Part shown: one piece after another, positions 40,317-56,637 of the stretch
Layout of the letters: every line of letters starts with the position of its first letter
How positions within the stretch are numbered: position 1 is the first letter of the stretch
Source of the DNA: Promethearchaeota archaeon
Lineage (GTDB): Archaea > Asgardarchaeota > Heimdallarchaeia > Hodarchaeales > Hodarchaeaceae
DNA length: 64,000 bases
Direction: 5' to 3'
NCBI GenBank assembly: GCA_048938105.1
Contig: JBHLMN010000006.1
Span: forward strand, 160,001 to 224,000
Position numbers and translations under genes: made by a program
Notes under the pieces: model-generated
Database searches by the model: none
What the model was told of the DNA's origin: nothing
What the model saw: only the letters and a program-made list of their open reading frames with translations

Positions 40317-41183
40317 CTACAAGTATGTTTTAACTGCTTCAGGAATATCCCACGGTGTTTCAGTGACTTTAGCACCAACAGCTTCCAAGGAAGCGATTTT
40401 TCCTTGAGCTGTTCCAACATTTCCAGAGATTATAGCACCAGCGTGACCCATGCGCTTTCCTTCAGGAGCACTCTTACCTGCAATGTAAGCAACAACAGAT
40501 TTGCTTATATTTTGATCTTTAATATATTGTGCAACCTTTTCTTCGTCATCACCCCCAATTTCACCTATTAATACAATTATTTTAGTTCCCTGATCTTTTA
40601 CGTAATAATCAAAAGCCTCAATCAGAGTTTTTCCTCTAACTGGATCCCCACCAATGCCAATATATGCGGAAACCCCGATATCGGCATTTCCGATGGCTTT
40701 TGTAATCTCATATGATAGTGTACCGCTTTTTGCAATGACTGCTACATTCCCAAAATGAGCCATATCTCCTGGCATGATTCCTAGTTTGATTTTGTCAGGG
40801 ATGAGCATTCCTGGAGTATTAGGACCAATCAAATGCAATTTTTTCGCCTTCGCTGTTTCTACAAGACGAACCATGTCAAAAACTGGAACACCTTCAGTTA
40901 TAATACAGGTCATATTAACTCCAGCATCCAAACTTTCCATAACAGCACTATAAGTGAACCGAGCTGGGACAAAAATGATACTGGTGTCGACTCCACGCTC
41001 ATTGACAGCTTCTTGGACAGTATTGAATACTGGTACCCCAAGAACTTCTTGGCCACCTTTTTTAGGAGTGACTCCTGCAACGATATTAGTACCGTACTTT
41101 AGCATCAATTGGGTATGGAACTTTCCCTGATTACCAGTAATACCTTGCACAACGACTTTCGAATCTTCATTAATATACATCAA
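40317..41183 (-). CDS. sucD: Succinyl-CoA synthetase alpha subunit
   Basis: VQGITG, GPNTPG, KSGTLSYE, GIGGD, GEIGG, phospho-His motif RMGHAGA. Confidence 0.93.
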   Translation of the reverse strand: MMYINEDSKVVVQGITGNQGKFHTQLMLKYGTNIVAGVTPKKGGQEVLGVPVFNTVQEAVNERGVDTSIIFVPARFTYSAVMESLDAGVNMTCIITEGVPVFDMVRLVETAKAKKLHLIGPNTPGMLIPDKIKLGIMPGDMAHFGNVAVIAKSGTLSYEITKAIGNADIGVSAYIGIGGDPVRGKTLIEAFDYYVKDQGTKIIVLIGEIGGDDEEKVAQYIKDQNISKSVVAYIAGKSAPEGKRMGHAGAIISGNVGTAQGKIASLEAVGAKVTETPWDIPEAVKTYL

Positions 41184-41192
41184 AACACCTAC

Positions 41193-42329
41193 TTAAGCCA
41201 TAACCTCTTTGAGCTTACCAACTGCATCCATCATATCTTGGTAAGCATCAATACCCGCATTTTTGAGTATTGCAACACCTTCAGCCTCTCGTGTTCCAGT
41301 CAATCTTATTACCATAGGGGGAGCATCTGGAAATTCTTTCATTGTCAGTAATATAGCTTCTGCCACAACATCACACCTTGTTATACCACCATAAATGTTG
41401 ATTAAGACTGACTTAGGTCTCATTGTATAAATGAGCTTAAGTGCTTCATATACTCGTTCCTTACTGGCACCTCCACCAACATCCAAGAAATTCATACCTG
41501 CCAAGCCGTGTTGAGCCAAAACATCAAGTAAAGCCATTGTTAACCCTGCTCCATTTGCTAGAATTCCTATTTCACCATCTAGTTCAACAAAAGAAAAACC
41601 AACCCTTTGAGCAGTTTTTTCTAATTCAGTAAGTTTTCGTTTCCGTAATTCCACGATAAGCTCCTGACGAAACGCAGCATTATCATCCAGAGTCATTTTT
41701 CCATCTACAGCGACCAGGCCTGAAGGAGTAAGCACCAGTGGGTTGATTTCAACAAGTTGTGCTTCTTTTTTAGTTGTAATCTGCCATAGCTTCATGAAGA
41801 GATCTACAGCTGAATTAAGATTTTCACCTGAAAAACCTAATTTTTCAGCGACTCCTTTTGCAGCGACCTCACTCAATCCTTCTGTTAAAGAGATATTCTG
41901 CTTGATTATTGCCTCTGGGCGAGTGGCAGCTACTTCTTCAATGTCAATACCCCCTTCAGCACTTGCAATGAGAACGAAACGTCTTCCAGAAGAATCTAAG
42001 GCAATAGAGCAGTAATATTCATGTTTAATATCAGCAAGACCCTCTATGAGGATTGCTTCGACTCCATATTCTCCCACCATTCTGTCAAAGAATTCGTTAC
42101 ATATCGAAAGAGCTTCTTCTTTTGTTTGAGCTATTTTGATGAGACCTCGCTTCTTTCGACTACCAACTGCTATTTGGCTTTTTACTATAGCAGGGAAGTT
42201 GAATTGACTTATCTTTTCTTCAACATCTTCCCCTTTTATGATAACAAGACGATCAGCAAGGGGAATCTCATATTCACTGAAAATTTCTTTGCTTTCATAT
42301 TCGAGTAAACGAATTGTATATACCTCCAA
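41193..42329 (-). CDS. sucC: Succinyl-CoA synthetase beta subunit
   Basis: LLEYESK, EGGIDIE, EINPL, NGAGLTM, NFLDVGGG, NIYGGITRCD. Confidence 0.93.
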   Translation of the reverse strand: MEVYTIRLLEYESKEIFSEYEIPLADRLVIIKGEDVEEKISQFNFPAIVKSQIAVGSRKKRGLIKIAQTKEEALSICNEFFDRMVGEYGVEAILIEGLADIKHEYYCSIALDSSGRRFVLIASAEGGIDIEEVAATRPEAIIKQNISLTEGLSEVAAKGVAEKLGFSGENLNSAVDLFMKLWQITTKKEAQLVEINPLVLTPSGLVAVDGKMTLDDNAAFRQELIVELRKRKLTELEKTAQRVGFSFVELDGEIGILANGAGLTMALLDVLAQHGLAGMNFLDVGGGASKERVYEALKLIYTMRPKSVLINIYGGITRCDVVAEAILLTMKEFPDAPPMVIRLTGTREAEGVAILKNAGIDAYQDMMDAVGKLKEVMA

Positions 42330-42382
42330 AAATTACCATATAAAAGAAGGTAGTGAATTTTTGATGTATGGATTGGAAATGT

Positions 42383-42988
42383 TCAGAAAGTAATGCCTAA
42401 AAACTCACCTATTTTACCTAGATTTTCTTGAGCCTGCATAGCTACATTTTTAAAAAGACTATCACCGTTTGTATCGATACCTACGATTAATGGCCCGAAT
42501 TTATCGACTTCTAGAACCCATAAACATTCAGGAGTTCCAAGATCTAACCAATGAACCTCTTTAACCCTTTTAATCCCTTTAGCAGCGACTACTGCGGCAC
42601 CGCCTACGAAGGCGGTATATATGGCCTTATATTCCTTCATAGCTTTAGCTGTTCTATCACCCATACCACCTTTACCGATAACAACATTCACATTAAAGGT
42701 CTTAATGAATCTGTCTTCAAAAAGATCCATACGGGTTGATGTCGTGGGCCCAGCAGCAACAATTTCCCATTCATCTCCTATTTGTCTCACAACTGGGCCA
42801 CAATGATAAACAGCTAAACCTTCAAAATCAATGGGCATTTTTTCACCTTTTTTTGCCAGGTGTAATGCTCTCTCATGAGCTTCATCTCTAGCAGTGAATA
42901 TTGTTCCCGATATGTAGATAACATCGCCTATCTTAACTTTTTGTACATCTTCTTTTGAAATTGGGGTTGTAAAATGAAATTCAGCCAT
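42383..42988 (-). CDS. Class I fumarate hydratase (Fe-S hydro-lyase) beta subunit
   Basis: TARDEAH, GPTTSTRM, GKGG, LGTPE. Confidence 0.88.
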   Translation of the reverse strand: MAEFHFTTPISKEDVQKVKIGDVIYISGTIFTARDEAHERALHLAKKGEKMPIDFEGLAVYHCGPVVRQIGDEWEIVAAGPTTSTRMDLFEDRFIKTFNVNVVIGKGGMGDRTAKAMKEYKAIYTAFVGGAAVVAAKGIKRVKEVHWLDLGTPECLWVLEVDKFGPLIVGIDTNGDSLFKNVAMQAQENLGKIGEFLGITF

Positions 42989-42990
42989 GA

Positions 42991-43896
42991 TTATTCCTCC
43001 TTGTGAGTTAGATATTCTACTCGTTTATCTGGGTAGATACGAGCGGTTGATCTTCTAGCAGCCCAGCATTGATAAGCTACAGCAGCAGGTAGGGAAGCTG
43101 GGTGTCGATGAGCATATTCAATCTTTACATCTAACGCTGTAGAGACATCTCCACCTAATCCCATTGCACCAATACCAGTCATATTAATTGCTTTCAAGAG
43201 GTCTTCTTCAAGCTTGGCTATTTCGGGATCAGGATGTCGTTCTCCGATTGGCCGCATTACTTGTTTTTTTGCTAATTTCAACGCGATATCTGCGCCACCA
43301 CCTATACCAACACCAACGACTCCAGGTGGGCAAGGTTGGCCACCTGCGTTTATAATAGTATCAATAACAAACTTTTTTATTCCATTAATTCCTTGGCCTG
43401 GTTTCAACATCCCCAAAGCGCACATATTCTCTGATCCCCCGCCTTTGGGAAATACTGTAATTTCCAGATAATCAGCTCCGGGAATAAAATCATAATTAAT
43501 GAATGGAATATGATTTCCTGTATTGTCCCCAGAATTTCCGCCTACAATAGGATTGACCGCATTTGGTCTTAAAGGAACTTCCTTGGTTGCTCGAACTGAA
43601 GCTTTCCTTAGTGTCTCTTCAATGCCTATAACTTTAGGAAAATTCTCACCAATATTAACATAATATATGTGAATTCCAGTATCTTGACACATTGGAGTAG
43701 ACGTCTCATCTGCTATGGTAAAGTTATCCACAATTGTTTTCAACGCAGCTTTACTTGTTGATTTCGTTTCTTGTTCATACATAGTTTTCAATGCGTCGGA
43801 AACATCTTTTGGTAGTTGAGTTGAGGCAAATTTGTGCAATTTAACAACTACATCTTCAATTATCGTGTTATCGAACGTTTCTGTCATAGTTATCAC
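42991..43896 (-). CDS. Class I fumarate hydratase (Fe-S hydro-lyase) alpha subunit
   Basis: PMCQDTG, KGGGSEN, PCPP..GVGIGG, HPASLP, QCWAAR. Confidence 0.88.
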
Positions 43897-44074
43897 TAAT
43901 CACAAACTATTGTTATATGAAAAACTGATAAAATATTTCTTTTGGTGTAAATAAAAATTCTCTCACTTATAACTTGTAAATACAATGTAGCCTTTCGAGT
44001 TGTTCATTCTTGCCTTGTCAAAATTCACATTGCTATGAAATATGAGAAAGTAGTGAAAAAAAGGAAGTCACGTT

Positions 44075-44815
44075 TTAACGTGACCAAAATTTAAGTGCTT
44101 GCTTCGCTGATTGGCGTTTTAATGCTTGGATAGCTTCTGTAGGATTAAGTTCTTTTGGGCATGCCTCAACACAATTAAATGCAGTATGACAGCGAAAGAC
44201 TCCGTCTTCAGCAGTTACACGTTTTACACGGTTCTTAGTATTTTCATCTCTAGTATCCTTAGTGAAACGGAATGCTTTTAGAAGTGCTCCAGGGCCCAAG
44301 TAATTCTTGTCTGTCCATACTGATACACATGAACTGTGACACGCTCCACATAGAATACATCTAGTTGCTTCTTCGATAATTTTAAAGTCTTCAGGGCTTT
44401 GAATGATTTCATCTTCAGGATCTTTAGAGTGATCCCTTATTAGGAAAGGATTAATAGCAAGTAATTTCTCATAGAAGGGATCCATATCAACTACCAAGTC
44501 TTTTATCACTGGAAAGAATGGTAATGGTTCCAACTTGATTTCTTTTTTGTTTAATTGTAAAACGAGAGTTTCACAAGCTAATTGGTACTTATTATTAACA
44601 AGCATTGCGCAAGATCCACATACGCCTGCACGACAATTGTATCTCATCGAAACGGAGCCATCGTACTTAGCAATGATCTCTTGTACTGCAATTAATACTG
44701 TTGTCCCTTTGTCACAATCTACTTCAAAGCTATCCCAGTATGGTTCATAATCTGTTGCTGGATTGAATCGCTTTATCTTGAAGGTTATTTTTTGAGTTTC
44801 TTTTGTTTCACTCAT
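44075..44815 (-). CDS. sdhB: Succinate dehydrogenase/fumarate reductase Fe-S subunit
   Basis: CRAGVCGSC..LAC, CILCGACHSSC, CHTAFNCVEACP. Confidence 0.93.
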   Translation of the reverse strand: MSETKETQKITFKIKRFNPATDYEPYWDSFEVDCDKGTTVLIAVQEIIAKYDGSVSMRYNCRAGVCGSCAMLVNNKYQLACETLVLQLNKKEIKLEPLPFFPVIKDLVVDMDPFYEKLLAINPFLIRDHSKDPEDEIIQSPEDFKIIEEATRCILCGACHSSCVSVWTDKNYLGPGALLKAFRFTKDTRDENTKNRVKRVTAEDGVFRCHTAFNCVEACPKELNPTEAIQALKRQSAKQALKFWSR

Positions 44816-44825
44816 TCATTTCACC

Positions 44826-46553
44826 TCAATACGTTCGTTCCTTTGGCTCCCATTTTGTTATAACGACATCTAAGTAGCTCAATTTTGCCTCTCCATCTGC
44901 ATAATTGGCCAATGTATGCTTTAAGAAGTTCTCATCATCTCTCTTGGGATAATCGAGACGCCAATGACATCCTCGACATTCTGTTCGTTTCAATGCACCT
45001 AAACACATAACTTCAGCGACATCAAGCATACCTTCAATAGCAAGTACCCACTCTAATTCTCTATTATATTGTCTGACCTTAGACTTTAAATATGCACCTT
45101 CTTTGAAACGCTTTTTAAGTTCCCTAATCTTATTAAGAGCTTCTGTAAGGGGGCCTTCTTCACGATATACAAAAACCTTGGTCATCATTGTAGCTCTCAT
45201 TTCTTCCATAATTGAGAAGGGATCATCCTTACCTTCACCATTGAACCATCGATCAAGTTTTGCTTCTTGTTTTTGTAATTCTGAAAAAAGGACATTTACA
45301 TCAGATGAGGATGTTACCCCCTTTGCATATTTAGCTGCCTCTAATCCGGCAATTTTTCCCATAACAGCACATTCCAGAAGAGAATTCCCACCTAAACGAT
45401 TAGCACCGTGGACTGATACACAGGAACATTCACCACAAGCAAAAAAGCCCTCTAATTCTTTGCTAGAGCAGTTTTCATCTACATGAATACCCCCCATCAT
45501 ATAGTGAAAACCAGGTTGAACTGGAATAGGATCTTTGATCATATCTTGGTTAGTAAATATTAATGCTAGCTCACGTATCTGAGGAAGACGCTCAAGAATT
45601 TGTTCTGCTGGCAAATGAGTCAAATCAAGGTGGACATAACCATTTTCTTTTGTACCAAATCCTCGTCCTTCAAGAACTTCTTGATAAATTGACCGAGAGA
45701 CAATATCTCTTGGAGCAAGTTCCATTTTCTCTGGCGCGTATTTTTCCATGAAGCGTTCACCCTTATTATTTCGTAAGTAACCACCTTCACCTCGTGCTGC
45801 CTCAGAAATTAGGACATTATTCCCATATAATGTTGTTGGGTGAAATTGAATGAATTCCATATCCTTGAGACCGACACCTGCCCAATAGGCTATTGCCATA
45901 CCAAAAGCGTTACAGCTAAGAGCATTGGATGTTGCTCCATAAACCTGTCCAGCACCACCAGTGGCGAAAATAACTGCATCACATTCCCACATCTCAAGAT
46001 CGCCTGTTCTAAAGTTATAAACAATGAGTCCTTGAACTTTTTTGTCTTTAACTGCTAATCGGGTAACAAGGCGATCTTCATAAACAGAGACACCGAGTTT
46101 GACAGATCTTTCCCAAGCTACATGAAGTACAGAGTGGCCAGTTCGGTCTGCAGCAAAACATGTTCTTGGGTATCCAGCTCCTCCGAAAGGTCTCTGTCCT
46201 ATTCTTCCATCTTCAAACCTTGAAAAAGGACAACCCCAATGTTCTAGTTCATAAACTGTTTCTTTAGCCAAACCTATCATTTTAATGACAGCTGGTTGAT
46301 CAGCCAGATAATCTGAACCTTTAACTGTATCGAAAGCATGTCGTTCAACAGAATCATCCTCTGATTCTGGATTATTGCATAATGGTGCATTAATTCCTCC
46401 TTGAGCTGCAACAGAGTGGCTTCTCACTGGTTGACATATTGAAATAACGGCTACATCTGCTCCAGTTTCTCTGGCAGCTACTGCTGCACGCATTCCAGCC
46501 AGACCTGACCCCACTACGAGTATTGAATGTCTTTGTATCTTCATTTTTATCAC
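44826..46553 (-). CDS. sdhA: Succinate dehydrogenase/fumarate reductase flavoprotein
   Basis: [10 protein letters not shown] (FAD-His), [39 protein letters not shown]. Confidence 0.95.
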
Positions 46554-47080
46554 TCACCTGCTAAAATCACAATTTCTGGAACAATTAGAATGAATACTAA
46601 AGCTACAAGCCAAGTAATGATCCCTAGGATCAGTAAAATCCAGAAAATTGTTTTTTGACTACGAATTCCTATTCCCAAGTCAAAAAGGACAACCCGAATG
46701 CCATTAAATCCATGATATACAAGAATCGCAATTAAACCTATATCTATCATATATCCGATACTAATAATGTTTTGGATGTTGATAACAATGTTCCCAAATT
46801 CTAGGGGAGCAAGGTCGGGGAAAATTGGTGAATTAACCCAGTGTATTAGGCTATTGTAGAATTGGCCAGCATTTAAGCCCCAAATTGAGTCTACAGCGAG
46901 TGTAAAGATCATTCCGAAATGGAATATTACATAAAATATTAGAAGAAGACCTGTAATTCGTTGAAGTAACCACGCCCACATTCCAATTCCGCGGGCAAAA
47001 GGATTGAACCATTGAAGAAAGTTTGTTGCTTTACTACTCGTATTTATTTGTGAATCATGTAGTTCCTCGTTTTTTGCCAT
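46550..47080 (-). CDS. sdhC: Succinate dehydrogenase cytochrome b subunit
   Basis: [11 protein letters not shown] and [13 protein letters not shown]. Confidence 0.85.
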
Positions 47081-47086
47081 TAAAAA

Positions 47087-47530
47087 TCACCTTATTCCAA
47101 TACTTGCGACAGTAAGATTCAACCAAAGAGTGTAACTGATAGCCAAAATTCCTATGATTATTAACAAGAATGCGATTAATTTTCGAAGTGTTTGATTTGT
47201 TGTGAGGTCTAATATTACTGTTCGAAATCCATTCAACATGTGAAAGACTAATAGTGTAACCATGCAGAAAGATATTACAAGATACAAAGGTATTCCTAAG
47301 TATGTATATTGCATCTTCCATTGAACTGCTTCAAAAGAAGCAACACCAAATGCCCGTATGTCCTTTGGTAGGAGAGCTGTTAGATAATGATTTGCCAGCA
47401 TGTGAAATAAAATAAAGAAGAATAATAAAAACCCAGAGACCCGCTGGAAAACCCACCAAATTGCACTCCTTGCCTGATGTTTGGGCACAAAACGCTTAAG
47501 TTTACTTTCAGAAGAAATTTCTATTCCCAT
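47087..47530 (-). CDS. sdhD: Succinate dehydrogenase membrane anchor subunit
   Basis: WVFQRVSG..H and FHMLNGFR. Confidence 0.82.
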   Translation of the reverse strand: MGIEISSESKLKRFVPKHQARSAIWWVFQRVSGFLLFFFILFHMLANHYLTALLPKDIRAFGVASFEAVQWKMQYTYLGIPLYLVISFCMVTLLVFHMLNGFRTVILDLTTNQTLRKLIAFLLIIIGILAISYTLWLNLTVASIGIR

Positions 47531-47899
47531 ATTTTGATCACATCATGTAACTATATTGCGATAGACTTTCAATTTTTACGAATATCGAAAGTTAAAGGCT
47601 CTGTGGAATATATTGGCAACCAGCTAATAGTATCTTATCTTTTTTTTCATTGGAAGGAAAAAAAAAGGCTATTTTTTAAACATAAAATAAATTCAGTTAA
47701 CAATTGTGGACTGATTTTAAAATTAAATTTTCAATTCAAAGCAATTCTGAGTACACAATTGTAAAAAGAAATTACTTGATGATATAGAAGCAAAAAGTGT
47801 CTGGAATATTAGTAGGTGAAAAATTAGGGATTGCCGTTTATCTTCAAGAGAAAATAGATTAAAGATAAAAAATGAGATGTGATTAAGAATCTCATTTCT

Positions 47900-49258
47900 T
47901 TATCGATTCTTCACATCAATGTAATTCCCAGCATCTGGTAAAACATAAATAAGGGGATCTCGATTCCTTTCTTCTCTGTACTTCTGAATCCATGAACGAA
48001 GACTCTCTTGAATCGTACCTGTTCGTGGGACATATTTCATTTGAAAAACATTTTCAATCTCGTCTTTATCCATTTCAGTGATTATATGACAAGTACAGCG
48101 CTTTAAAATTCGTAGTAAATCGACTACCTTTTGATTACCAATTTTAAAAGTTTCAATACTGCACTTTGTTTCAATAACATGATTCATTGCTTCACCAAGA
48201 TCCATTCCCTTAATTTCTTGCATTGTGTCATAGTAATTCTGAGATCCATGACCAAAAGGGCAGTGAGCAAGTAGTAAAACATTTCCACCTTGTTTAACTG
48301 CATTCCAGCCAGCGTGAAAACCTTTTCCACCTTGGTATAAATTAATACTCAATGCTCCTGTAGATACAATTACTAGATCAGCAGGATCCTCAACTTCAAC
48401 GATTCGAAGGGGTTTTAACGTTTCTAGTACTAATTCATGTAAAGAGTTGATATCTCCTCCGTTAAGAATAACAATATCATCACCCTCCATAACAGCATCG
48501 ATACAGAATACAGGGACTAGTTTCTTGGTAGATTTAGCCATCTCAATCATGTCTTGAATGACTGGATTACCTGTTGTATTCCCTAGACGACATTCTGGTT
48601 TAAATCCATGAACCTTATCAAACATTTGTGGATGATTTCTGGCAATGGTTTCTTTACCAGCACATCCTGGGAAGAAGGATTTAACTGTTCCTGCAACTCC
48701 AGCGAAATAGTGATATTCGCTATCTGAGACAGCAATAACTAATCCAGATTCCAATACATCAATATCAACTTCAATCGGTGTACCTAATGACGAGGTTCCA
48801 AGATTTTTGCAATTTTCATCTTGTTTATGAATTATAACATGATCTTTCCATGCATTGTAAATCTCAGAACCAAGGATTTTATTTTCAAGTAAATCATCAC
48901 TTGGAGGACTATGGGATCCACTTGCGATCATAAGACGAATATCATCTTTATTTACTCCAAAATCAAACAGTTTTTCTAAAAGTATTGGAAGTAAAATCTT
49001 CGTATGCTTATTTGGTCTGGTTGCATCATCCACAAGAATCATTATTCTCGGTCTTGCCCGATTTTTCACCATTTCCTCTAAGGGAGGTGAATCAACAGGA
49101 TTTTTGATGATTTCGTCAAAACGAGCTTGGAGATCTGTGAAAGTACGTTTTGCTTTCTCGGGCTCCAGAACTCGTACATTCAAATCTGCTGGGATGAAAT
49201 CGGAAATCATTTCATCCCCGTATGCTAACGATATATCCTTGTAAGACATAAGTATCAT
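47900..49258 (-). CDS. larA: LarA-family nickel-pincer-nucleotide-dependent 2-hydroxyacid racemase/epimerase
   Basis: DDATRP, ASGSH, HYFAGVAGTVKSFFPG, ARNH and NLYQGGKG retain the LarA catalytic, NPN-binding and Ni residues; substrate unknown. Confidence 0.85.
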   Translation of the reverse strand: MILMSYKDISLAYGDEMISDFIPADLNVRVLEPEKAKRTFTDLQARFDEIIKNPVDSPPLEEMVKNRARPRIMILVDDATRPNKHTKILLPILLEKLFDFGVNKDDIRLMIASGSHSPPSDDLLENKILGSEIYNAWKDHVIIHKQDENCKNLGTSSLGTPIEVDIDVLESGLVIAVSDSEYHYFAGVAGTVKSFFPGCAGKETIARNHPQMFDKVHGFKPECRLGNTTGNPVIQDMIEMAKSTKKLVPVFCIDAVMEGDDIVILNGGDINSLHELVLETLKPLRIVEVEDPADLVIVSTGALSINLYQGGKGFHAGWNAVKQGGNVLLLAHCPFGHGSQNYYDTMQEIKGMDLGEAMNHVIETKCSIETFKIGNQKVVDLLRILKRCTCHIITEMDKDEIENVFQMKYVPRTGTIQESLRSWIQKYREERNRDPLIYVLPDAGNYIDVKNR

Positions 49259-49552
49259 CCCTATTAAATCCGTAATTTACAATATTTTATAATAATTTTT
49301 CCTCCAGTGATTTACAAGATGCAAGGAAAAGCAAGTTTCACTTAATATTCTTTTTCTAACCACAATAAAACACAAATGTAATTAGAATGTAGAATACACT
49401 TTTTGTAATAAAATTCTTATTGACTTGACAATTTTTTTGTAACTAAACTAAAGAACCCCCTCACAAGCAAATAAGAGGGAAATTAAATACGTACGGCACT
49501 TCCTGCCTTTTTCTATATTATATTTAGTAACTAGATTTAGAGAGGAAAGAAT

Positions 49553-50836
49553 ATGGCCCAAAAGTCAATATATGAATTTTCAGCAAAAACTTTGTTAATG
49601 TCGGAGTTACCCAAATATTTTCCTGAATATAATTATCATGGAAAACTTGCGGTTATTACTCCTGATACTGACTGGAATAAATTAGTTACCGACCATCCTT
49701 GGCTTAAGACTGATAAGCTTGCAGCAAAGCCTGATCAACTATTTGGGAAACGTGGTAAGGCAAAATTATTATTATTAGATGCAAACTTTGATGAGCTGAA
49801 ATCATTCTGTTCAGATAGATTGAATAAAGAAGTAGAGATTGGGGGTATTAAAGGCACTCTCAACAGATTCTTAGTTGAGCCATTTATCCCACACGAGAAG
49901 GAATTTTATGTTTCAATAACTTCTGATATGGAAAATGACATCATTCACTTCTCTTTTGAAGGAGGTATCTTCGTTGAGGAAAACTGGGATAAGGTTGTGC
50001 ATATTCCTATTCCCATAGGAACTGATATCTCTTCTTTTGACCTAGCAAGTAAATTACCTGATTTAGGTGATCTTAGAGACAAGCTAATACAATTCATCAA
50101 AGGAGTATTTCAAGTCTATGTCGAACAAGATTTCGCTTTCTTGGAAATAAATCCTTTTGCAATCACTGAAGATAAAACAATTGTACCCTTGGATCTAAAG
50201 GCAAAACTTGATGATACTGCTAGCTTTCAACACATTGACACCTGGGGAAACCCAGATAATCCAATAGAATTCCCAAGAGCATTTGGACAAGTATTATCCA
50301 AGGAAGAGCATTTTATTTCTGATTTAGATGAGAAAACAGGGGCTTCATTAAAATTCACTATTTTGAACAGAGACGCCCGAGTATGGACAATGGTAGCAGG
50401 GGGTGGTGGATCAGTTGTATATACAGATACTATAGCTGACATGGGTTTTGCTAAAGAACTAGGTAATTATGGAGAATATTCAGGAAATCCAAATAGAGAG
50501 CATACACAACTTTATGCTCAAACAATCATAGATATTCTGACAGAAAAACCTGATCCTCAAGGACGACCTAAGATTTTACTTATCGGAGGTGGAATTGCGA
50601 ATTTCACCGATGTGAAAGCAACCTTCATGGGTATTGTAGCTGCGTTACGGAATTCTGCAGAAAAACTACGTAAAACCAACGTTAAAATTTACGTCCGACG
50701 AGGCGGACCAAATGAAAAAGAAGGTTTAAAGCTGATGAAGGAAGTTGGGGAAGAAATAGGAGTTCCTATCGAAGTGTTTGATAGATACACTCACATGACA
50801 AAGATTGTTCCATTATCACTTAAAGGAGATAGTTAA
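49553..50836 (+). CDS. aclB: ATP-citrate lyase ATP-grasp/citrate-binding subunit
   Basis: KPDQLFGKRGK, LEINP, GASLK, WTMVAGGGGSVVYTD, NYGEYSGNP, GGGIANFT, VRRGGPN. Confidence 0.93.
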   Translation: MAQKSIYEFSAKTLLMSELPKYFPEYNYHGKLAVITPDTDWNKLVTDHPWLKTDKLAAKPDQLFGKRGKAKLLLLDANFDELKSFCSDRLNKEVEIGGIKGTLNRFLVEPFIPHEKEFYVSITSDMENDIIHFSFEGGIFVEENWDKVVHIPIPIGTDISSFDLASKLPDLGDLRDKLIQFIKGVFQVYVEQDFAFLEINPFAITEDKTIVPLDLKAKLDDTASFQHIDTWGNPDNPIEFPRAFGQVLSKEEHFISDLDEKTGASLKFTILNRDARVWTMVAGGGGSVVYTDTIADMGFAKELGNYGEYSGNPNREHTQLYAQTIIDILTEKPDPQGRPKILLIGGGIANFTDVKATFMGIVAALRNSAEKLRKTNVKIYVRRGGPNEKEGLKLMKEVGEEIGVPIEVFDRYTHMTKIVPLSLKGDS

Positions 50837-50849
50837 AGGAGGATAATAA

Positions 50850-52682
50850 ATGACATCAGAACTATTTAAGCGAAGTACACGAGCGATTATTTATGGTTTT
50901 CAACGTAATGCTATTCAACGAATGCTTGACTTCGACTTTGTATGCAAAAGAGAAACTCCTTCCGTTGCTGCGGTAATTAGACCCAGCCAAGCAGGCGCAA
51001 TTGGTTATCACAAGGTGTTTTGGGGGGGGAAAGAAATTGTTATACCAATCTATCGAAAACTGGATCTTGCAGTCAAAAAGCATCCTGACGCGGATGTTTT
51101 GATCAACTTCTCATCATTCCGTTCTGCATATCCAACAACAATGGAAGCACTGAACTTTGATACAATTAAGACCGTAGCAGTAATTGCAGAGGGAATACCA
51201 GAGCGAAGAAGTCGTGAAATGAATAAATTAGCTAGAAGCAAGGGTAAAGTAATAATTGGCCCCGCTACAGTTGGAGGAATACAAGCAGGAGCATTTAAAA
51301 TCGGTAATACGGCAGGAACAATAGAGAATGTTGTTCTTTCAAAACTCTACCGTCCTGGCAGTGTCGGATTTGTATCAAAGAGTGGTGGTATGAGCAATGA
51401 AATGAATTTTGCTATTTCCCAGAACTCCGATGGTATCTATGAAGGAATAGCTATTGGAGGTGACCGTTATGCAGGATCAACATTGCTAGATCATCTACTT
51501 CGGTACGAAGCCAATCCTAAGATTAAAATGATGGTTTGTTTAGGTGAAGTAGGTGGTACTGGAGAAATTAATATAGTAAATGCCGTAAAAGATGGCCGTA
51601 TAACAAAGCCCCTAGTTATGTGGTGTATTGGAACAGCAGCAAGTCTTCTCCCATCAGGTTTACAATTTGGCCACGCTGGTGCAATGGCTGGAAGCGAGAT
51701 GGAAACAGCCAGTGCGAAGAACAAAGCTCTTGCAGAAGTAGGTGTAATAGTTCCTGAATCATATGATGATTTTGGGGACAAGATTAAAGAAACCTTTGAG
51801 AAACTCAAAGCTGAAGGGAAAATTGACCCTATAGAGGATTTCGAACCTCCTGAGTTGCCCATGGATTACGCTAAAGCTGCGAAAGCTGGACTTGTAAGAC
51901 GACCAACAGATGTTGTATGTACGATCAGTGATGAACGGGGAGACGTTCCAATGTTCTCTGGTGTCGGTCTTGACTCAATTGTAGAACAAAATAAATCTCT
52001 TGGATATACTATTGGTCTTCTATGGTTTAAGAGAGAATTACCTAAGTTTGCTCAAGATTATATTGAAATTGTTGTCAAATTAACATCAGATCATGGCCCT
52101 GCAGTTTCTGGAGCTCATAATGCTATTGTTACTGCCCGTGCAGGACGAGATCTGATGTCTTCACTCGCAACTGGGATTCTTACAATAGGTCCAAGATTTG
52201 GTGGAGCAATTTCTGATGCAGCAAAATATATGAAAATGGCCCTTGAAAAGAACATGACTCCTCTAGAATTTGTTGACCACATGAAAAACGTTGTTGGTAT
52301 TAATATTCCTGGTATTGGCCATAGAATCAAATCAGTTCAGAATCCTGATGTACGAGTAAAGCTATTGAAAGAATTCGTTCTTAAAAACTTTGAAAAACAT
52401 CCATATCTTGATTTTGCTCTGGAAGTCGAAAAAATCACGACAGCTAAGAGGAATAATCTAATCCTCAATGTTGATGGCTGTATTGGAATCTGTTTCATGG
52501 ATCTCTTAGAGAACTTGGACTTTTCAGAGGAGGAAAAGAATGATGTTGTTGAAAGCGAAGTTTTGAATGGATTATTCGTACTTGGACGATCAATTGGAAT
52601 GATGGGTCATATCTTCGATCAAAAGAGACAGAGAGCTGCATTATATCGACAACCTTGGGACGAAATACTCTTTGCGGATTAA
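50850..52682 (+). CDS. aclA: ATP-citrate lyase CoA-binding/citryl-CoA lyase subunit
   Basis: MLDFDFVC, GPATVGG, KSGGMSNE, QFGHAGA, DHGPAVSGAHN, GPRFGGA, GIGHRIKS, LNVDG. Confidence 0.94.
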   Translation: MTSELFKRSTRAIIYGFQRNAIQRMLDFDFVCKRETPSVAAVIRPSQAGAIGYHKVFWGGKEIVIPIYRKLDLAVKKHPDADVLINFSSFRSAYPTTMEALNFDTIKTVAVIAEGIPERRSREMNKLARSKGKVIIGPATVGGIQAGAFKIGNTAGTIENVVLSKLYRPGSVGFVSKSGGMSNEMNFAISQNSDGIYEGIAIGGDRYAGSTLLDHLLRYEANPKIKMMVCLGEVGGTGEINIVNAVKDGRITKPLVMWCIGTAASLLPSGLQFGHAGAMAGSEMETASAKNKALAEVGVIVPESYDDFGDKIKETFEKLKAEGKIDPIEDFEPPELPMDYAKAAKAGLVRRPTDVVCTISDERGDVPMFSGVGLDSIVEQNKSLGYTIGLLWFKRELPKFAQDYIEIVVKLTSDHGPAVSGAHNAIVTARAGRDLMSSLATGILTIGPRFGGAISDAAKYMKMALEKNMTPLEFVDHMKNVVGINIPGIGHRIKSVQNPDVRVKLLKEFVLKNFEKHPYLDFALEVEKITTAKRNNLILNVDGCIGICFMDLLENLDFSEEEKNDVVESEVLNGLFVLGRSIGMMGHIFDQKRQRAALYRQPWDEILFAD

Positions 52683-52736
52683 GTCCCAATGTCTCTTTTT
52701 ATTTTAAACTAAAAATGAAATATAAGGTGATAAAAA

Positions 52737-53936
52737 TTGTCTGAAGAAAATATCAAAAAAGCACTCGAACATTTTGAGAACCTTGTTCGTGAACAACTTG
52801 AACGTGTAGAAAGAATGAAAAAAGAGCCAGATTGGACTGATTTCAGCACATTAAAACCAATTATCATTGGTGCCTGCGGTGGAGATGGTATTGGTCCGAA
52901 AATAACTGAACATGCAGTTGCCATTCTAAACTTCCTCTTAGAAGATGATATTAAATCAGGAAAGATTGAGATCCGGAATATTACAGGTTTAACAATTGAA
53001 AATAGAGCAAAAGTGATGAAAGCAATTCCTGATGATGTTTTAGAGGAACTTAAAAAATGTCATGTTATATTGAAAGGCCCAACGACCACACCCTGGAAAG
53101 GAAACAAATATGGCTGGCCAAACATTGAATCTGCCAACGTAGCAATGCGTCGGGAATTAGATCTTTTCGCCAACGTTCGTCCTGTTCGTGTACCCGAGAA
53201 GAATATCGATTGGATGTTTTATCGTGAGAACACAGAAGGAGCATACATTCTCGGCTCAAAAGGTGTTGAAGTCACAGATGATCTAGCTGTTGATTTCAAA
53301 GTAATTACCAATCAAGGTTCAGATCGCATCATCAGAGCAGCATTTGAGTATGCAAAAAAGAACAATATCAATAAAGTCACGGTGGTCACTAAAGCTAATG
53401 TTGTCAAGAAATCAGATGGAAAGTTCTTAGCTATTGCTGAAGAAGTAGCAAAAGACTATCCAGAAGTGGAATGGGACGATTGGTACGTTGACATCATGAC
53501 TGCAAAGCTCATTGATCCTGCACGACAAAGCTCCTTCCGCGTGATAACTGCTCCTAATTTGTACGGGGACATTGTTACCGACGAAGCAGCTCAAATCCAA
53601 GGAGGACTTGGTACAGCTGGAGCCGCAAATATTGGTAAGAGATATGCAATGTTCGAAGCAGTTCACGGTTCGGCCCTTCGGATGGTTGAAGATGGAAGAG
53701 TTGATTATGCTGATCCAACTAGTATCATCAAAGCCACAGCTATGCTTTTGAACCATATAGGGTTCACAGAAAAAGGAAATACACTGGACAAAGCTCTAGA
53801 CATCTGTTCTCAGTATGAAAAGAAGTTAACCATGACAGGGCGAGATACAGGCGCTACTGGCGAAAAATTTGCTGAATATATCATGGAAACGCTTCAAGAT
53901 CCCAACTTAGATCAGAAATGGCAAAGCTATCAGTGA
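52737..53936 (+). CDS. icd: Isocitrate dehydrogenase (isocitrate/isopropylmalate family)
   Basis: GDGIGP, KGPTTTP, SANVAMRRELDLFANVRP, RENTEGAY, TKAN, NLYGD..D, FEAVHGSA; TCA context. Confidence 0.8.
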   Translation: MSEENIKKALEHFENLVREQLERVERMKKEPDWTDFSTLKPIIIGACGGDGIGPKITEHAVAILNFLLEDDIKSGKIEIRNITGLTIENRAKVMKAIPDDVLEELKKCHVILKGPTTTPWKGNKYGWPNIESANVAMRRELDLFANVRPVRVPEKNIDWMFYRENTEGAYILGSKGVEVTDDLAVDFKVITNQGSDRIIRAAFEYAKKNNINKVTVVTKANVVKKSDGKFLAIAEEVAKDYPEVEWDDWYVDIMTAKLIDPARQSSFRVITAPNLYGDIVTDEAAQIQGGLGTAGAANIGKRYAMFEAVHGSALRMVEDGRVDYADPTSIIKATAMLLNHIGFTEKGNTLDKALDICSQYEKKLTMTGRDTGATGEKFAEYIMETLQDPNLDQKWQSYQ

Positions 53937-53940
53937 GTTG

Positions 53941-53968
53941 CTTTCCCTTCCCTTTTTCCTTTTTTTAT
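53941..53968 (+). terminator. Oligo-T/pyrimidine tract terminator after aclBA-icd
   Basis: CTTTCCCTTCCCTTTTTCCTTTTTTT just after the icd stop, between convergent genes. Confidence 0.4.
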
Positions 53969-54064
53969 AAATTGACTAGTCTCTATTTTATTTGATTATA
54001 ATTTTTTAATATAATTTATCTTAATCTTGAAAAACTATAAAAAAAAGAGGGGGAGGATGCCAAA

Positions 54065-55984
54065 TTAAATGTAGCTTAATGTGCCTCCAGCAATCAGAAT
54101 TTTTCGGTCACGCTCAGAAAGATCATATGATGTTTTAATATCAAATCCTTGAGTAATATCTCGGATGACGATTGGTTTATTTCCTTCTAAAGCTTTCCGT
54201 ACTCCTTTAATCTCTAGAACATCATTCTCTTTTATTTTATCATAATCTCCTGAATTTGAGAATGATAGAGGAAGAATTCCGAAGTTTATTAGATTATCCC
54301 GATGAATTCGCGCAAAAGATTTTGTCAGTACCGCTTTTATTCCAAGGTACATTGGAGCAAGAGCAGCGTGTTCTCGACTAGAACCTTGACCATAATTTTC
54401 TCCTCCAATGATAATTCCACCACCTTCCTTTTTACTTTCAAGAGCTCTTTCGGGGAAAGTGGGGTCTACTTGTTCAAAGACATATTTACTAATCTCTGGG
54501 AGATTGGACCTTAAAGGTAATATTTTTGCTCCTGCAGGCATAATATGATCCGTTGTGATGTTATCCTCTGTTTTAATTAGAACTTTAAACTGGAAATCAT
54601 CAGGTATCGCGTGAAATTCTGGTAATGGAGCAATGTTTGGGCCTCGGATAATCTCTACATCTTCAGGTTTGCCAGAGGGTTTTAGAATCATTGAATCGTC
54701 TATTTCGATTGAGGTTGGAATATTAACATTTGGATAATCTCCTAACTTCCGAGGATCTGTGAATTCTCCAAAAACAGCAGCAGCTACCGCAACTTCTGGG
54801 CTAACCAAATATGCATTTGCACTCTTTGTTCCACTTCTCCCATAAAAGTTCCTATTGAAAGTCCGAGCTATTGTAGCATTTGTTTTAGGAGCAAAACCCA
54901 TACCGATACAAGGTCCACAGGCAGTTTCCAGAATTCGAGCACCCGCTGTAATCATATCAGCTAAACTACCATCTTTTGATAATTGCATTAATACTTGACG
55001 TGATCCAGGGGAAATGCCTAAAACTGTATGTGGATGAATTTTACGTCCTTTTAAAAGAGCTGCAGCAGTTAACATGTCTTTTAATGAACTATTAGTGCAA
55101 GATCCAATTGCCACTTGATCTACTTTCATCCCCTCAACTTCAGAGAGAGGAACAACATCACCAGGAGAATGAGGTTTAGCAACGAGGGGTTCCAGCTCAG
55201 AGAGATTAATCTCAATTATCTCATCATAATCTTCATCTGTTCCTGCAGGAATTTCCACCCATTGATCTCCCCTTTCTTGCCATTTGAGAAAATCATGTGT
55301 GATTTCATCAGAGGGGAAGATTGAAGTTGTTGCTCCAGTTTCAGCCCCCATATTTGTAATTGTGGCGCGTTCAGGAACAGACAGTGTTTTCACTCCTGGT
55401 CCATAATACTCTAAGATCTTACCAACGCCACCTTTTACTGAAATTCTCCTGAGAACTTCTAAGATCACGTCTTTTGCCGTAACGTAATCTCTTAACGCGC
55501 CTGTCAATTTCACTCCAACAATTTTGGGTGCTTTAAGGTAGAATGGGCCACCTCCCATTGCTACAGCAACATCAAGACCACCTGCACCAATTGCTATCGC
55601 ACCCATACCGCCAGCTGTCGGGGTGTGCGAATCAGAACCGATTAAGGTCTTTCCTGGTCTGGCAAATCGCTCAAGAAACACTTGATGGCAGATACCATTC
55701 CCTGGTCGAGAAAACATGATCCCATACTTGGCTGCAATAGATTGTAGATATCGATGATCATCAGGGTTTTTAAAATCCGTTTGTAACGTGTTATGATCTA
55801 TGATTGACACAGATAACTCTGTCTTGACCTTATCAAGACCCATTGCCTCAAATTGAAGGTACGCCATAGTTCCAGTGGCATCCTGAGTCAGAGTGTGATC
55901 GATTCGAATAGCTATCTCTTCTCCAACTTCATATTTCCCTTCAATAATGTGTTCTTCTAATATTTTCTTTGCTATGCTTACCAT
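54065..55984 (-). CDS. acn: Aconitate hydratase (short, Aquifex/Clostridia-type)
   Basis: QDATGT, DHN, GICHQ, GSDSHT, GSCTN, CGPCIG, NRNF, TTDHI, NYGQGSSREHAA. Confidence 0.92.
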   Translation of the reverse strand: MVSIAKKILEEHIIEGKYEVGEEIAIRIDHTLTQDATGTMAYLQFEAMGLDKVKTELSVSIIDHNTLQTDFKNPDDHRYLQSIAAKYGIMFSRPGNGICHQVFLERFARPGKTLIGSDSHTPTAGGMGAIAIGAGGLDVAVAMGGGPFYLKAPKIVGVKLTGALRDYVTAKDVILEVLRRISVKGGVGKILEYYGPGVKTLSVPERATITNMGAETGATTSIFPSDEITHDFLKWQERGDQWVEIPAGTDEDYDEIIEINLSELEPLVAKPHSPGDVVPLSEVEGMKVDQVAIGSCTNSSLKDMLTAAALLKGRKIHPHTVLGISPGSRQVLMQLSKDGSLADMITAGARILETACGPCIGMGFAPKTNATIARTFNRNFYGRSGTKSANAYLVSPEVAVAAAVFGEFTDPRKLGDYPNVNIPTSIEIDDSMILKPSGKPEDVEIIRGPNIAPLPEFHAIPDDFQFKVLIKTEDNITTDHIMPAGAKILPLRSNLPEISKYVFEQVDPTFPERALESKKEGGGIIIGGENYGQGSSREHAALAPMYLGIKAVLTKSFARIHRDNLINFGILPLSFSNSGDYDKIKENDVLEIKGVRKALEGNKPIVIRDITQGFDIKTSYDLSERDRKILIAGGTLSYI

Positions 55985-56557: not shown

Positions 56558-56637
56558 GATTTTGTCCTTTTATTATATAGGAATCACAAATATTCTCAGA
56601 TTTTGTCTTTTTATTATATAGGAATCACAAATATTCT
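56553..56637. repeat. 41-bp tandem direct repeat (2 copies, 1 mismatch)
   Basis: TCTCAGATTTTGTC(C/T)TTTTATTATATAGGAATCACAAATAT at 56553 and 56594. Confidence 0.9.

Follow-up and report, generated by a model that had tools for sequence, protein, structure and literature searches.

A conserved cluster of TCA-cycle genes built on ATP-citrate lyase in a Hodarchaeales archaeon

In a contig of a Promethearchaeota archaeon assigned to the Hodarchaeales, genes for TCA-cycle enzymes surround those of an ATP-citrate lyase (ACL), which raises the question of whether this neighbourhood is a genuine metabolic module and, if so, in which direction its cycle would run. The stretch analysed, hereafter the window, spans 64,000 nucleotides (C41:160001-224000). 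A first-pass annotation of the window had described a TCA module built on ACL at 40317-55984, and this description is supported: Pfam and NCBIfam profiles recovered all 13 listed genes, contiguous and at the coordinates given, comprising sucCD, fumAB, sdhCDAB, larA, aclBA, an IDH-type gene and acn (Table 1). It had also reported a window devoid of citrate synthase (CS), malate dehydrogenase (MDH) and 2-oxoglutarate oxidoreductase, in agreement with genome-wide scans for CS, MDH and OGOR/OFOR (PF00285, PF01855, PF02866 and PF02615), in which aclA was the sole match within the window. The korDAB genes start just 1.6 kb past its end.

Table 1. Genes of the extended cluster, with window coordinates and the profile matches behind each predicted assignment
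Feature	Position	Strand	Profile evidence
menA-like 1,4-dihydroxy-2-naphthoate prenyltransferase	28277..29236	+	Pfam UbiA; TIGR00751 (menA) 115.5 bits vs cut-off 102
Cat1-family (acetyl-CoA hydrolase/transferase) CoA-transferase + GNAT fusion	29245..31164	-	Pfam AcetylCoA_hydro, AcetylCoA_hyd_C, Acetyltransf_1; top NCBIfam butyryl-CoA:acetate CoA-transferase, 235 bits, under cut-off
Two tandem YdiJ-like FAD/Fe-S/CCG D-2-hydroxyacid dehydrogenases, 988 aa each	31489-34455, 34769-37735	+	Pfam FAD_binding_4, FAD-oxidase_C, Fer4_8, CCG; NCBIfam YdiJ D-2-hydroxyglutarate dehydrogenase 376-382 bits (cut-off 1350), GlpC 264-266 (cut-off 278)
Family-I CoA-transferase, 589 aa	37848..39617	-	Pfam CoA_trans 55.7 bits; NCBIfam search without match
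Conserved 170-aa protein (hyp170), two CxxC pairs	39742..40254	+	No known family; no Pfam or NCBIfam match
sucD	40317-41183	-	Pfam CoA_binding + Ligase_CoA
sucC	41193-42329	-	Pfam ATP-grasp_2, 171 bits; NCBIfam NF001913 369.5 vs cut-off 370
fumB	42383-42988	-	Pfam Fumerase_C, 163 bits
fumA	42991-43896	-	Pfam Fumerase, 318 bits; NCBIfam NF004885 343.7 vs cut-off 276
sdhB	44075-44815	-	Pfam
sdhA	44826-46553	-	Pfam; TIGR01812 717.8 vs cut-off 567
sdhD	46550-47080	-	Pfam Sdh_cyt anchor
sdhC	47087-47530	-	Pfam Sdh_cyt anchor
LarA-family nickel-pincer 2-hydroxyacid racemase homologue	47900-49258	-	Pfam Lar_N + LarA_C; top NCBIfam malate racemase LarAH6, 254 bits vs cut-off 500
aclB	49553-50836	+	Pfam Citrate_bind 264 bits; Citrate_synth_N 229 bits vs cut-off 83
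aclA	50850-52682	+	Pfam Ligase_CoA + Citrate_synt
Atypical IDH-type beta-decarboxylating dehydrogenase (icd)	52737-53936	+	Pfam Iso_dh 221 bits; operon with aclBA; below every NCBIfam cut-off, best NADP-IDH, 249 bits
acn, 639-aa aconitate hydratase	54065-55984	-	Pfam Aconitase 386 bits; NCBIfam NF005558 973 vs cut-off 612

The module exceeds the span first noted, a supercluster of ~37 kb having 40317-55984 at its core. In the source genome and two congeners (G058 and G063), it starts at menA, takes in two CoA-transferases and the YdiJ-like dehydrogenases, and reaches korDAB-hdrA/mvhD, the gene order in both congeners being menA, Cat1, YdiJ-like, CoA_trans, hyp170, sucDC, fumBA, sdhBADC, larA, aclBA, icd, acn, lacZ and hdrA/mvhD-korBAD. 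The menA-like gene, with a predicted role in menaquinone synthesis, forms the left edge and is syntenic in G058, as is the Cat1-family gene (87%). The Family-I CoA-transferase (71-75%) and hyp170 (81-85% identical) are syntenic in both congeners, each of which has one copy of the YdiJ-like gene in place of the two paralogs found here (75.6% identical to each other). Neither CoA-transferase reaches a curated family cut-off, which leaves its substrate uncertain; the Cat1-family protein is a candidate acyl-CoA:acetate or succinate CoA-transferase, and the succinyl-CoA:acetate enzymes of Desulfobacter and Desulfuromonas belong to this family (PMC9768450).

The grouping could be a relic of chance gene order inherited within one genus, its operons being functionally uncoupled. 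Descent alone predicts a common order within the single genus to which the full cluster is confined, and the more distant congeners G050 and G056 retain just larA-aclBA-icd, with or without acn. This explanation is nevertheless very improbable, considering that 13-20 genes of the same pathway are adjacent, with tight operon spacing in sdhCDAB (gaps of -4 to 10 bp), fumAB-sucCD (9 bp between sucC and sucD) and aclBA-icd, the last adjoined by acn, which is convergent with icd. Moreover, aclBA again adjoins icd at all five loci with an AclA identity of 68-74% (Loki-type, with one record labelled bacterial), with sucCD adjacent in three of the five and acn nearby in one, and one record labelled bacterial (L023) carries acn-aclBA. 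The core cluster is also kept in L014-L017. Scattered genes in relatives had been proposed as an argument against a module, and the relatives proved syntenic instead. Given that gene order recurs in related genomes, the clustering is not due to chance; the cluster is real and conserved. ACL is present in 17 of 20 congeners, where canonical CS is patchy (14/20). Within the class, ACL and the cluster IDH type are distributed together, almost confined to this genus and found elsewhere in Loki-type families. Neither the supercluster, nor the missing dedicated CS, nor the restriction to one Hodarchaeales genus within the class was found in the available passages of published accounts of Asgard ACL.

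The aclB and aclA genes are predicted to encode a two-subunit ATP-citrate lyase, the AclA subunit being of the Methanothrix/eukaryote type. AclA scores 790 bits against Methanothrix ACLY-B, 750 against human ACLY and 417 against Chlorobium AclA, and the alignment retains catalytic residues equivalent to human E599, H760, H900 and D1026. In our tree, the Asgard ACLs form a single clade to which eukaryotic ACLY is not sister, so the link to the eukaryotic enzyme implied by the first-pass annotation finds no support here or in published phylogenies. That Asgard archaea carry ACLs which do not group with eukaryotic ACL has been published, in accounts that treat ACL as presence/absence or in phylogenies (bioRxiv 385732; bioRxiv 2022.10.25.513756; PMC11976288).

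Among the remaining core genes, sucCD is predicted to encode an ADP-forming succinyl-CoA synthetase, fumA and fumB a two-subunit class I Fe-S fumarase, and sdhCDAB a four-subunit succinate:quinone oxidoreductase/fumarate reductase. The SdhC and SdhD anchors have ~3 TM helices and two membrane His apiece, and the complex probably carries two haems. The larA-like gene, divergent from aclB, adjoins ACL in at least 10 congeners; its top PDB match, at 166 bits, is Mar2 (6d6z), to which it aligns in the GxH, HY.AG..G..K and NH motifs, and LarC is encoded in the genome. The icd product has the motif HGSALRM and, as top PDB matches, small NAD-IDHs (183 bits) and IDH3 alpha; best match and context point to an IDH of uncertain substrate.

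Partner enzymes were sought genome-wide. No dedicated CS was found, the only canonical CS being PrpC-type, in a methylcitrate operon between prpB and prpD-acs, and Ldh_1-type MDH is absent from the genome by PF02866/PF02615 scans, which leaves two Ldh_2 genes as candidates for the MDH step. Ferredoxin-dependent 2-oxoacid synthases, whose absence had been put forward as evidence against a reductive TCA (rTCA) cycle, are plentiful: the genome encodes eight strong ferredoxin-type OFOR alpha subunits plus IorA. At least four of the OFORs are PorA-like and many are amino-acid-type. Beside the cluster, a KorA-like alpha subunit (494 bits vs cut-off 411) and a KorB whose best match is the 2-oxoglutarate type are encoded in a korDAB operon with hdrA-mvhD; at this locus no kor gamma gene was found, and a fused HdrA-MvhD is the sole Hdr-type part.

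Gene identities, catalytic residues, synteny and the genome-wide partner inventory are observed here, whereas we infer the direction of the cycle, the substrates of the LarA, YdiJ-like and CoA-transferase proteins and how many haems the anchors carry. On balance, a complete TCA cycle resembling that of Desulfobacter, reversible and dependent on ferredoxin and menaquinone, which serves a heterotroph in a mainly amphibolic or oxidative mode, is somewhat probable. Such a cycle would take in acetyl-CoA and amino-acid carbon. Citrate would be interconverted with acetyl-CoA and oxaloacetate by ACL rather than citrate synthase, the enzyme working near equilibrium in an ATP-conserving, citrate-forming role, as in Desulfobacter postgatei; aconitase and the IDH-type dehydrogenase would follow, and the 2-oxoglutarate step would fall to the KorDAB ferredoxin oxidoreductase, encoded with hdrA-mvhD beyond the window. 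Succinyl-CoA would be handled by succinyl-CoA synthetase plus the CoA-transferases, succinate would be linked to menaquinone by the four-subunit, probably two-haem enzyme, and fumarate would be converted by the class I fumarase. An Ldh_2-family dehydrogenase encoded elsewhere, rather than an Ldh_1-type MDH, would probably serve the malate/oxaloacetate step, which the LarA-type racemase and the YdiJ-like quinone-linked dehydrogenases may serve too, or instead. Reverse operation would be possible when reductant is plentiful.

The alternative that an rTCA (Arnon-Buchanan) cycle fixes CO2 autotrophically or mixotrophically is unlikely. ACL would then cleave citrate, PFOR would carboxylate acetyl-CoA, HdrA-MvhD would feed low-potential electrons to KorDAB as 2-oxoglutarate synthase, and the Sdh-like complex would act as a menaquinol:fumarate reductase. 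All marker enzymes are present, and with complex II linked to MenA, fumarate reduction would be exergonic by established redox potentials. Malic enzyme, also encoded, could provide anaplerosis, and CODH/ACS was not found in the genome, so that no Wood-Ljungdahl carbonyl branch would compete for fixation. An rTCA cycle has been proposed for ACL-bearing Lokiarchaeia (bioRxiv 385732). However, ACL, cited in the first-pass annotation as the rTCA marker, is not diagnostic, since Desulfobacter employs it oxidatively (PMC9768450, citing Moller et al. 1987). Pyruvate carboxylase, PEP carboxylase and GTP-PEPCK were not found in the genome and an ATP-PEPCK match is marginal; for a large-genome heterotroph (5.85 Mb, with lacZ, IOR and CoA-transferases by the cluster) lacking an anaplerotic carboxylase, a mainly amphibolic/oxidative cycle would be expected. 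The missing CODH/ACS, together with MenA, cytochrome bd (on the same contig), the Cat1-type CoA-transferase and the quinone-type D-2-hydroxyacid dehydrogenases, likewise argues for heterotrophic or oxidative use, the last two suiting oxidation and acetate activation better than reduction. A Gln in a 10-residue SdhA motif points the same way under a Gln/Glu rule for SdhA versus FrdA that comes from E. coli work and is not general. Hodarchaeota have also been reconstructed as respiring heterotrophs (bioRxiv 2020.10.19.343400).

Against this oxidative preference, KorDAB with HdrA-MvhD, several PFORs and menaquinol-driven fumarate reduction fit the reductive direction equally well, and menaquinone renders succinate oxidation endergonic. 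No haem-copper oxidase was found in the genome, so a sufficiently strong terminal acceptor for complete acetyl-CoA oxidation is established no further than cytochrome bd. The bin also has 7% contamination. The genes may also serve as branches instead of a full cycle, which is again an unlikely arrangement. In that case, citrate, whether taken up or derived from glutamate through reductive carboxylation via IDH and aconitase, would be cleaved by ACL to acetyl-CoA and oxaloacetate; oxaloacetate would pass through malate and fumarate to succinate as an electron sink, favourably driven by menaquinol, while 2-oxoglutarate would be oxidised to succinate with ATP gained. The aclBA-icd operon and neighbouring acn form just such a citrate to 2-oxoglutarate segment, aclBA-icd (with sucCD in three of five loci) is the portion common to Loki-type relatives, the amino-acid-type OFORs are many, and contig C6 bears further citrate-cleaving genes (citF beside a SucC-like gene, and a SucD-citryl-CoA-lyase fusion). 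On the other hand, the genes identified in the cluster include no citrate transporter, all closed-cycle steps are encoded and conserved together in the genus, a grouping that branched use does not need, and the ATP cost of ACL would be regained only if conversion of acetyl-CoA to acetate yields ATP. Of the earlier suggestions of a reductive cycle, a reversible cycle or citrate catabolism, the reversible cycle is the favoured one, the context leaning more to heterotrophic amphibolic/oxidative use than to autotrophy; the earlier statement that sequence does not reveal the direction still holds.

Compared with known systems, these are the same genes as the ACL already known in Asgard archaea (the three accounts cited above). 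AclA aligns end to end with Methanothrix (Methanosaeta) soehngenii/concilii ACLY-A/B and human ACLY (PDB 6hxi, 6znw, 6hxh, 6poe), sharing the two-subunit layout of the former and, unlike animal ACLY, being split rather than fused. Unlike both, the Hodarchaeales ACL is set in a full TCA cluster. The obligate photoautotroph Chlorobium has the classical rTCA cycle, in which ACL is used reductively. Enzyme family, domain order and two subunits are shared with C. limicola AclAB (PDB 6hxj), whose AclA is far more distant than that of Methanothrix. The cycle of Desulfobacter postgatei and D. hydrogenophilus employs ACL, 2-oxoglutarate:ferredoxin oxidoreductase and succinyl-CoA:acetate CoA-transferase (PMC9768450, citing Brandis-Heep 1983; Moller 1987; Schauder 1987). 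Unlike Desulfobacter, the Hodarchaeales host is archaeal, with an ACL of the Methanothrix/eukaryote type, and its cluster also has a succinyl-CoA synthetase, a LarA-type racemase, YdiJ-like dehydrogenases and a kor locus in one operon with hdrA-mvhD. As in Desulfobacter, ACL would replace a dedicated citrate synthase, the 2-oxoglutarate enzyme would be ferredoxin-dependent, complex II would be of menaquinone type with a Cat1-family CoA-transferase by the cycle genes, and a single enzyme set would serve both directions.

The first-pass annotation had described a thirteen-gene TCA cluster built on ATP-citrate lyase (ACL), and Pfam and NCBIfam searches recovered every one of these genes in its place. 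Curated NCBIfam models support fumA and sdhA, with sucC borderline. The module is larger than first described, reaching a menA gene on the left and a kor-hdrA-mvhD set beyond the window on the right. The same contig, C41, carries a two-subunit 2-oxoacid:ferredoxin oxidoreductase (OFOR) and cytochrome bd farther on. Citrate synthase (CS), malate dehydrogenase (MDH) and OFOR had been reported missing from the window, and genome-wide family scans gave no match in C41:160001-224000 other than aclA. The host assembly spans 5.85 Mb and is 99% complete with 7% contamination. Its attribution to a probable Asgard archaeon is borne out by AclB relatives at 85-93% identity in Candidatus Hodarchaeota, Heimdallarchaeota or Promethearchaeota, and by AclA relatives that include Candidatus Hodarchaeum mangrovi. 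The DNA runs in which at least one third of the sampled words of the stretch occur are metagenomes of sediment, mangrove and marsh.

Features of the extended TCA cluster, from left to right (positions in the window)
Feature	Position	Strand	Remarks
menA-type prenyltransferase	left edge
Cat1-family CoA-transferase fused to a GNAT domain	farther left of sucD
Two tandem 988-aa YdiJ-like FAD / Fe-S / CCG D-2-hydroxyacid dehydrogenases	31489-37735 (31489-34455 and 34769-37735)	+	farther left of sucD
Family-I CoA-transferase	farther left of sucD
Conserved 170-aa protein	39742-40254		left of sucD; two CxxC pairs, no known family
sucC, sucD	42329 to 40317	-	9 bp between genes
fumA, fumB	43896 to 42383	-	2 bp between genes
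sdhC, sdhD, sdhA, sdhB	47530 to 44075	-	spacing -4 to 10 bp
LarA-family gene	47900-49258	-	divergent from aclB-aclA-icd
aclB-aclA-icd	49553-53936 (aclB 49553-50836, aclA 50850-52682, icd 52737-53936)	+	gaps 13 and 54 bp
acn	54065-55984	-	convergent with icd; 973 bits, cut-off 612
korD-korA-korB, then hdrA-mvhD fusion	1.6 kb past window end		right of cluster

Scattering of these genes in relatives had been named as evidence against a module, but gene order proved to be conserved. On their long contigs, the congeners G058 and G063 keep the whole order (menA, Cat1, YdiJ-like, CoA-transferase, the 170-aa protein, sucDC, fumBA, sdhBADC, larA, aclBA, icd, acn, lacZ, hdrA/mvhD-korBAD) at 71-96% protein identity, and more distant congeners retain larA-aclBA-icd, with or without acn. 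Five further loci, Loki-type and with AclA at 68-74% identity (one in a record labelled bacterial), likewise have icd beside aclBA, with sucCD adjacent in three of the five and acn nearby in one. The 170-aa CxxC protein is 81-85% identical in G058 and G063, where it is likewise flanked by the CoA-transferase and sucD; it may be a small zinc-ribbon protein that regulates the cluster. The YdiJ-like genes form a tandem duplicate in the window (75.6% protein identity) and occur as a single copy at the same site in both of these congeners. In the window, acn is separated from a complete lacZ (59402-62512) by a segment (56126-59412) with a 128-aa beta-galactosidase C-terminal fragment and an FtsX/MacB-type permease gene; in G058 and G063, acn is directly adjoined by lacZ. 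The segment has the appearance of an insertion that includes a duplicate of the lacZ end.

AclB has both ACL-specific domains, Citrate_synth_N (228.8 bits, cut-off 83) and Citrate_bind (264 bits). End-to-end alignments of AclA score 790 bits with Methanothrix ACLY-B and 750 bits with human ACLY, and Chlorobium AclA is a far weaker match (417 bits). Its motif LQFGHAGA matches the human QFGHAGA, with His275 at the position of human H760, and E114, H415 and D542 align with E599, H900 and D1026 of the human citryl-CoA-lyase module. In ACL, the GHAG-motif histidine (human H760) is the phospho-histidine, and E599, H900 and D1026 are catalytic residues. Of the Methanothrix structures, 6hxi has Asp at the position equivalent to D1026 and 6znw has Ala, which is probably an engineered change. 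On sequence grounds, the AclAB of the window is a two-subunit ATP-citrate lyase.

A second citrate-cleaving set lies on contig C6 at 279-284 kb (L027:9035-14066), comprising a 444-aa SucC-like gene, a 713-aa SucD-citryl-CoA-lyase fusion and a stand-alone citF by iorAB. In layout the fusion resembles a type II ACL or a fused CCS-CCL, and many genomes from a different genus of the class have it as their sole match to the CS family model PF00285. An aclA-icd pair on the 2.9-kb contig C19 (L028) was considered as a paralogue and rejected, being 93% and 91% identical to a Loki-type MAG (L021) and only 74% and 70% identical to the window copies; it is probably mis-binned contamination (bin contamination 7%).

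Quick maximum-likelihood trees of AclA-homologous regions with SH-aLRT support, in 67-row and 31-row versions, place Hodarchaeales and Loki-type AclA in a single clade (support 100) and sequences named as fungal and dinoflagellate in a separate one (97-98). The clade with eukaryotic ACLY also holds a prokaryotic group of ~1020-aa proteins with two AclA-like regions each. The metagenomic proteins P0040, P0046 and P0057 (about 1020-1040 aa), which group with eukaryotic ACLY, have a full AclA-like region followed by a second, shortened one. The Asgard clade is not sister to the eukaryote-containing clade, and the branches between them are weak (85). This placement agrees with bioRxiv 2022.10.25.513756 and PMC11976288, in which ACL in Asgard archaea, not grouping with eukaryotic ACL, is already described. 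Nesting of Hodarchaeales ACL within Loki ACL, with 82% support in the 67-row tree, was set aside as it collapses to a polytomy in the 31-row tree.

A scan of 82 genomes of the class detected the ACL citrate-binding domain in 17 of 20 congeners, the source genome and one other genome (a weak match). Homologues of the cluster's IDH-type protein (E <= 1e-60) were found in 12 of 15 sampled congeners and in none of 45 sampled genomes of the class's other families; elsewhere in the phylum, they occur in 45 of 59 genomes of two families at 66-79% identity, and one of these families includes a locus with a Loki-type ACL. In the phylum sample, the IDH-type protein is confined to where ACL occurs. Exchange of an aclBA-icd block among Asgard lineages would account for this patchy distribution, and so would loss from all of the class's other families; the tree names no donor and does not favour either. 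ACL and the IDH type are present in one genus of the class and otherwise in Loki-type families, and eukaryotic ACLY groups with another prokaryotic group. Such a distribution speaks against ACLY having come by simple vertical descent from a Hodarchaeales-like host.

The IDH-type protein finds its best matches among IDH models and IDH structures, all below cut-off. It has a ~40-residue N-terminal extension and carries HGSALRM at the IDH/IPMDH cofactor-specificity site, a motif that differs from both the K-Y (NADP) and the D-I (NAD) type. The KorA-like alpha subunit passes a generic 2-oxoacid model (494 against 411) and scores 368 against 579 with the 2-oxoglutarate equivalog, while KorB is closest to the 2-oxoglutarate type at 244 (cut-off 364). 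SdhA passes only the direction-neutral TIGR01812, with the sdhA_forward and fumarate-reductase models under cut-off. Typing complex II from SdhA as succinate:quinone or quinol:fumarate was abandoned, as PDB scores are similar and neither these nor the NCBIfam scores discriminate. Complex II has two anchors with two membrane histidines each, a predicted arrangement consistent with a di-haem menaquinone enzyme; menA lies at the cluster edge, alongside this menaquinone reading. The anchors (46550-47530) are 47-54% identical to those of the congener loci L015 and L016, whose flanking sdhA and sdhB are at 84-92%, and 83% identical to those of a third congener, G063; the loci compared with the window were L015, L016 and L034. 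The genus seems to have two complex II anchor types, which suggests replacement of anchor genes.

PF00285 has four matches genome-wide: the cluster's aclA, the aclA fragment on contig C19 (2.9 kb), the 713-aa fusion on C6 beside the SucC-like gene, citF and iorAB, and a canonical 380-aa enzyme between prpB and prpD-acs, which passes solely the '2-methylcitrate synthase/citrate synthase II' model. Since these are aclA, a fragment, a fusion and a PrpC-type enzyme, the source genome is without a dedicated TCA citrate synthase. The last of them belongs to a methylcitrate-cycle operon on contig C49 at 195-202 kb (L025:7347-15477; prpB, PrpC-type synthase, prpD, acyl-CoA synthetase), and an Ldh_2-family dehydrogenase (C49:200427-201443) lies two genes away; in the congeners G058 and G066, an Ldh_2 gene likewise lies ~2.4 kb from a PrpC-type (~384-aa) synthase. 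A clean anticorrelation of ACL and CS in the class did not hold, canonical CS being patchy (14 of 20 congeners, PrpC-type or a ~620-aa form) and ACL present in 17 of 20. For this genome we also rejected a shuttle linking cytosolic ACL, by way of citrate, to the microcompartment that has been published for Hodarchaeales and encloses citrate synthase: the genome has no BMC shell gene or ~620-aa CS, and ACL presence in the genus does not track microcompartment presence.

The family scan found no Ldh_1-type MDH in the source genome, and one is present in 10 of 20 congeners; Mqo was not found in the source genome or the genus. Two Ldh_2-family genes occur in the source genome, one of them beside the prp operon, with candidates in 15 of 21 genomes. 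The cluster's LarA has Lar_N and LarA_C domains, and its catalytic His pair, cofactor Lys and Ni-binding His align with Mar2; the cofactor synthesis gene larC lies on contig C4 (286 bits). Its best matches, the malate racemase models LarAH6 and LarAH5, stay well under cut-off (254 against 500 and 233 against 462, respectively), and by sequence comparison, it belongs to a separate LarA lineage whose nearest relatives are malate racemases. LarA is linked to ACL in at least 10 congeners, with or without MDH, and the phyletic pattern lends no support to a simple replacement of MDH by LarA, which adjoins ACL in congeners both with and without Ldh_1-type MDH.

These genes nonetheless allow a coherent candidate for an oxidative, energy-saving cycle, although we rate it as quite improbable. 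L-malate from fumarase would be racemised to D-malate by the LarA-type enzyme, and the YdiJ-like dehydrogenases would oxidize D-malate to oxaloacetate with menaquinone as acceptor. Menaquinone-linked malate oxidation would be exergonic, unlike the NAD-linked MDH reaction, and the resulting oxaloacetate pressure might reverse ATP-citrate lyase, making it an ATP-forming citrate synthase with extra ATP per turn. If true, this would be a new closure of the cycle without MDH or citrate synthase. The Ldh_2 enzymes may, however, perform the malate step without LarA or the YdiJ-like proteins.

As to direction, the first-pass annotation had held that it cannot be read from sequence. This stands, and what follows is what we infer. 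A lack of ferredoxin-dependent 2-oxoacid synthases, proposed as an argument against the reductive TCA (rTCA) cycle, was not seen: the genome scan found eight strong OFOR alpha subunits (four PorA-like, two divergent PorA-like, one KorA-like and two fused alpha-gamma), and IorA. CO2 fixation by rTCA would also accord with the kor-hdrA/mvhD link, the many PFORs, the exergonic nature of menaquinol:fumarate reduction, and citrate cleavage by ACL plus a second ACL-like pair on C6. Against it, the PorA-like OFORs are not accompanied by an anaplerotic carboxylase (PYC or PEPC), as pyruvate carboxylase, PEP carboxylase and GTP-PEPCK had no match genome-wide (PF02436, PF14010, PF00821), and we consider CO2 fixation by rTCA unlikely. 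ATP-PEPCK (PF01293) gave a marginal partial match of 26.5 bits, and the sole C3-C4 link detected is malic enzyme. The genome also has LarC and cytochrome bd; genome-wide scans found neither acetyl-CoA synthase (CdhC) nor a haem-copper oxidase. Branched use, in which citrate or glutamate would be cleaved and the full cycle not run, is similarly doubtful. The absence of anaplerotic carboxylases, the lacZ and IOR neighbours, cytochrome bd and the quinone-type D-2-hydroxyacid dehydrogenases incline us, by a little, to a heterotroph that uses the cycle amphibolically or oxidatively. The genome encodes candidates for each step of a closed cycle, with enzymes of the anaerobe type that include a probably ferredoxin-linked 2-oxoglutarate step and a class I Fe-S fumarase. 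The ACL reaction itself is near equilibrium.

Hodarchaeales rank with the archaea most closely related to eukaryotes so far known, and their central carbon metabolism therefore informs host models of eukaryogenesis. Our analysis shows one Hodarchaeales genus with a citric-acid cycle on a eukaryote/Methanothrix-type ACL, with predicted ferredoxin- and menaquinone-linked steps and no dedicated citrate synthase. Most of the individual facts, namely ACL in Asgard archaea, ACL-based cycles and non-monophyly with eukaryotes, were already known. The cluster is of moderate interest because of its lineage and because so compact a gene set makes direction and ATP conservation testable, offering a defined target for testing ATP conservation by an ACL-based archaeal cycle.

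The initial observation is confirmed and extended: the cluster is a well-organised gene set for a predicted ACL-based reversible TCA cycle. The first interpretation is supported in part, as regards an ACL-based TCA module, and a reversible cycle of this kind is already a known type. According to work cited in PMC9768450, Desulfobacter postgatei uses ACL oxidatively and gains ATP, and the same cycle operates in the reductive direction in D. hydrogenophilus. That source also places the succinyl-CoA:acetate enzymes of Desulfobacter and Desulfuromonas in the Cat1 family, the same family as the cluster's GNAT-fused CoA-transferase.
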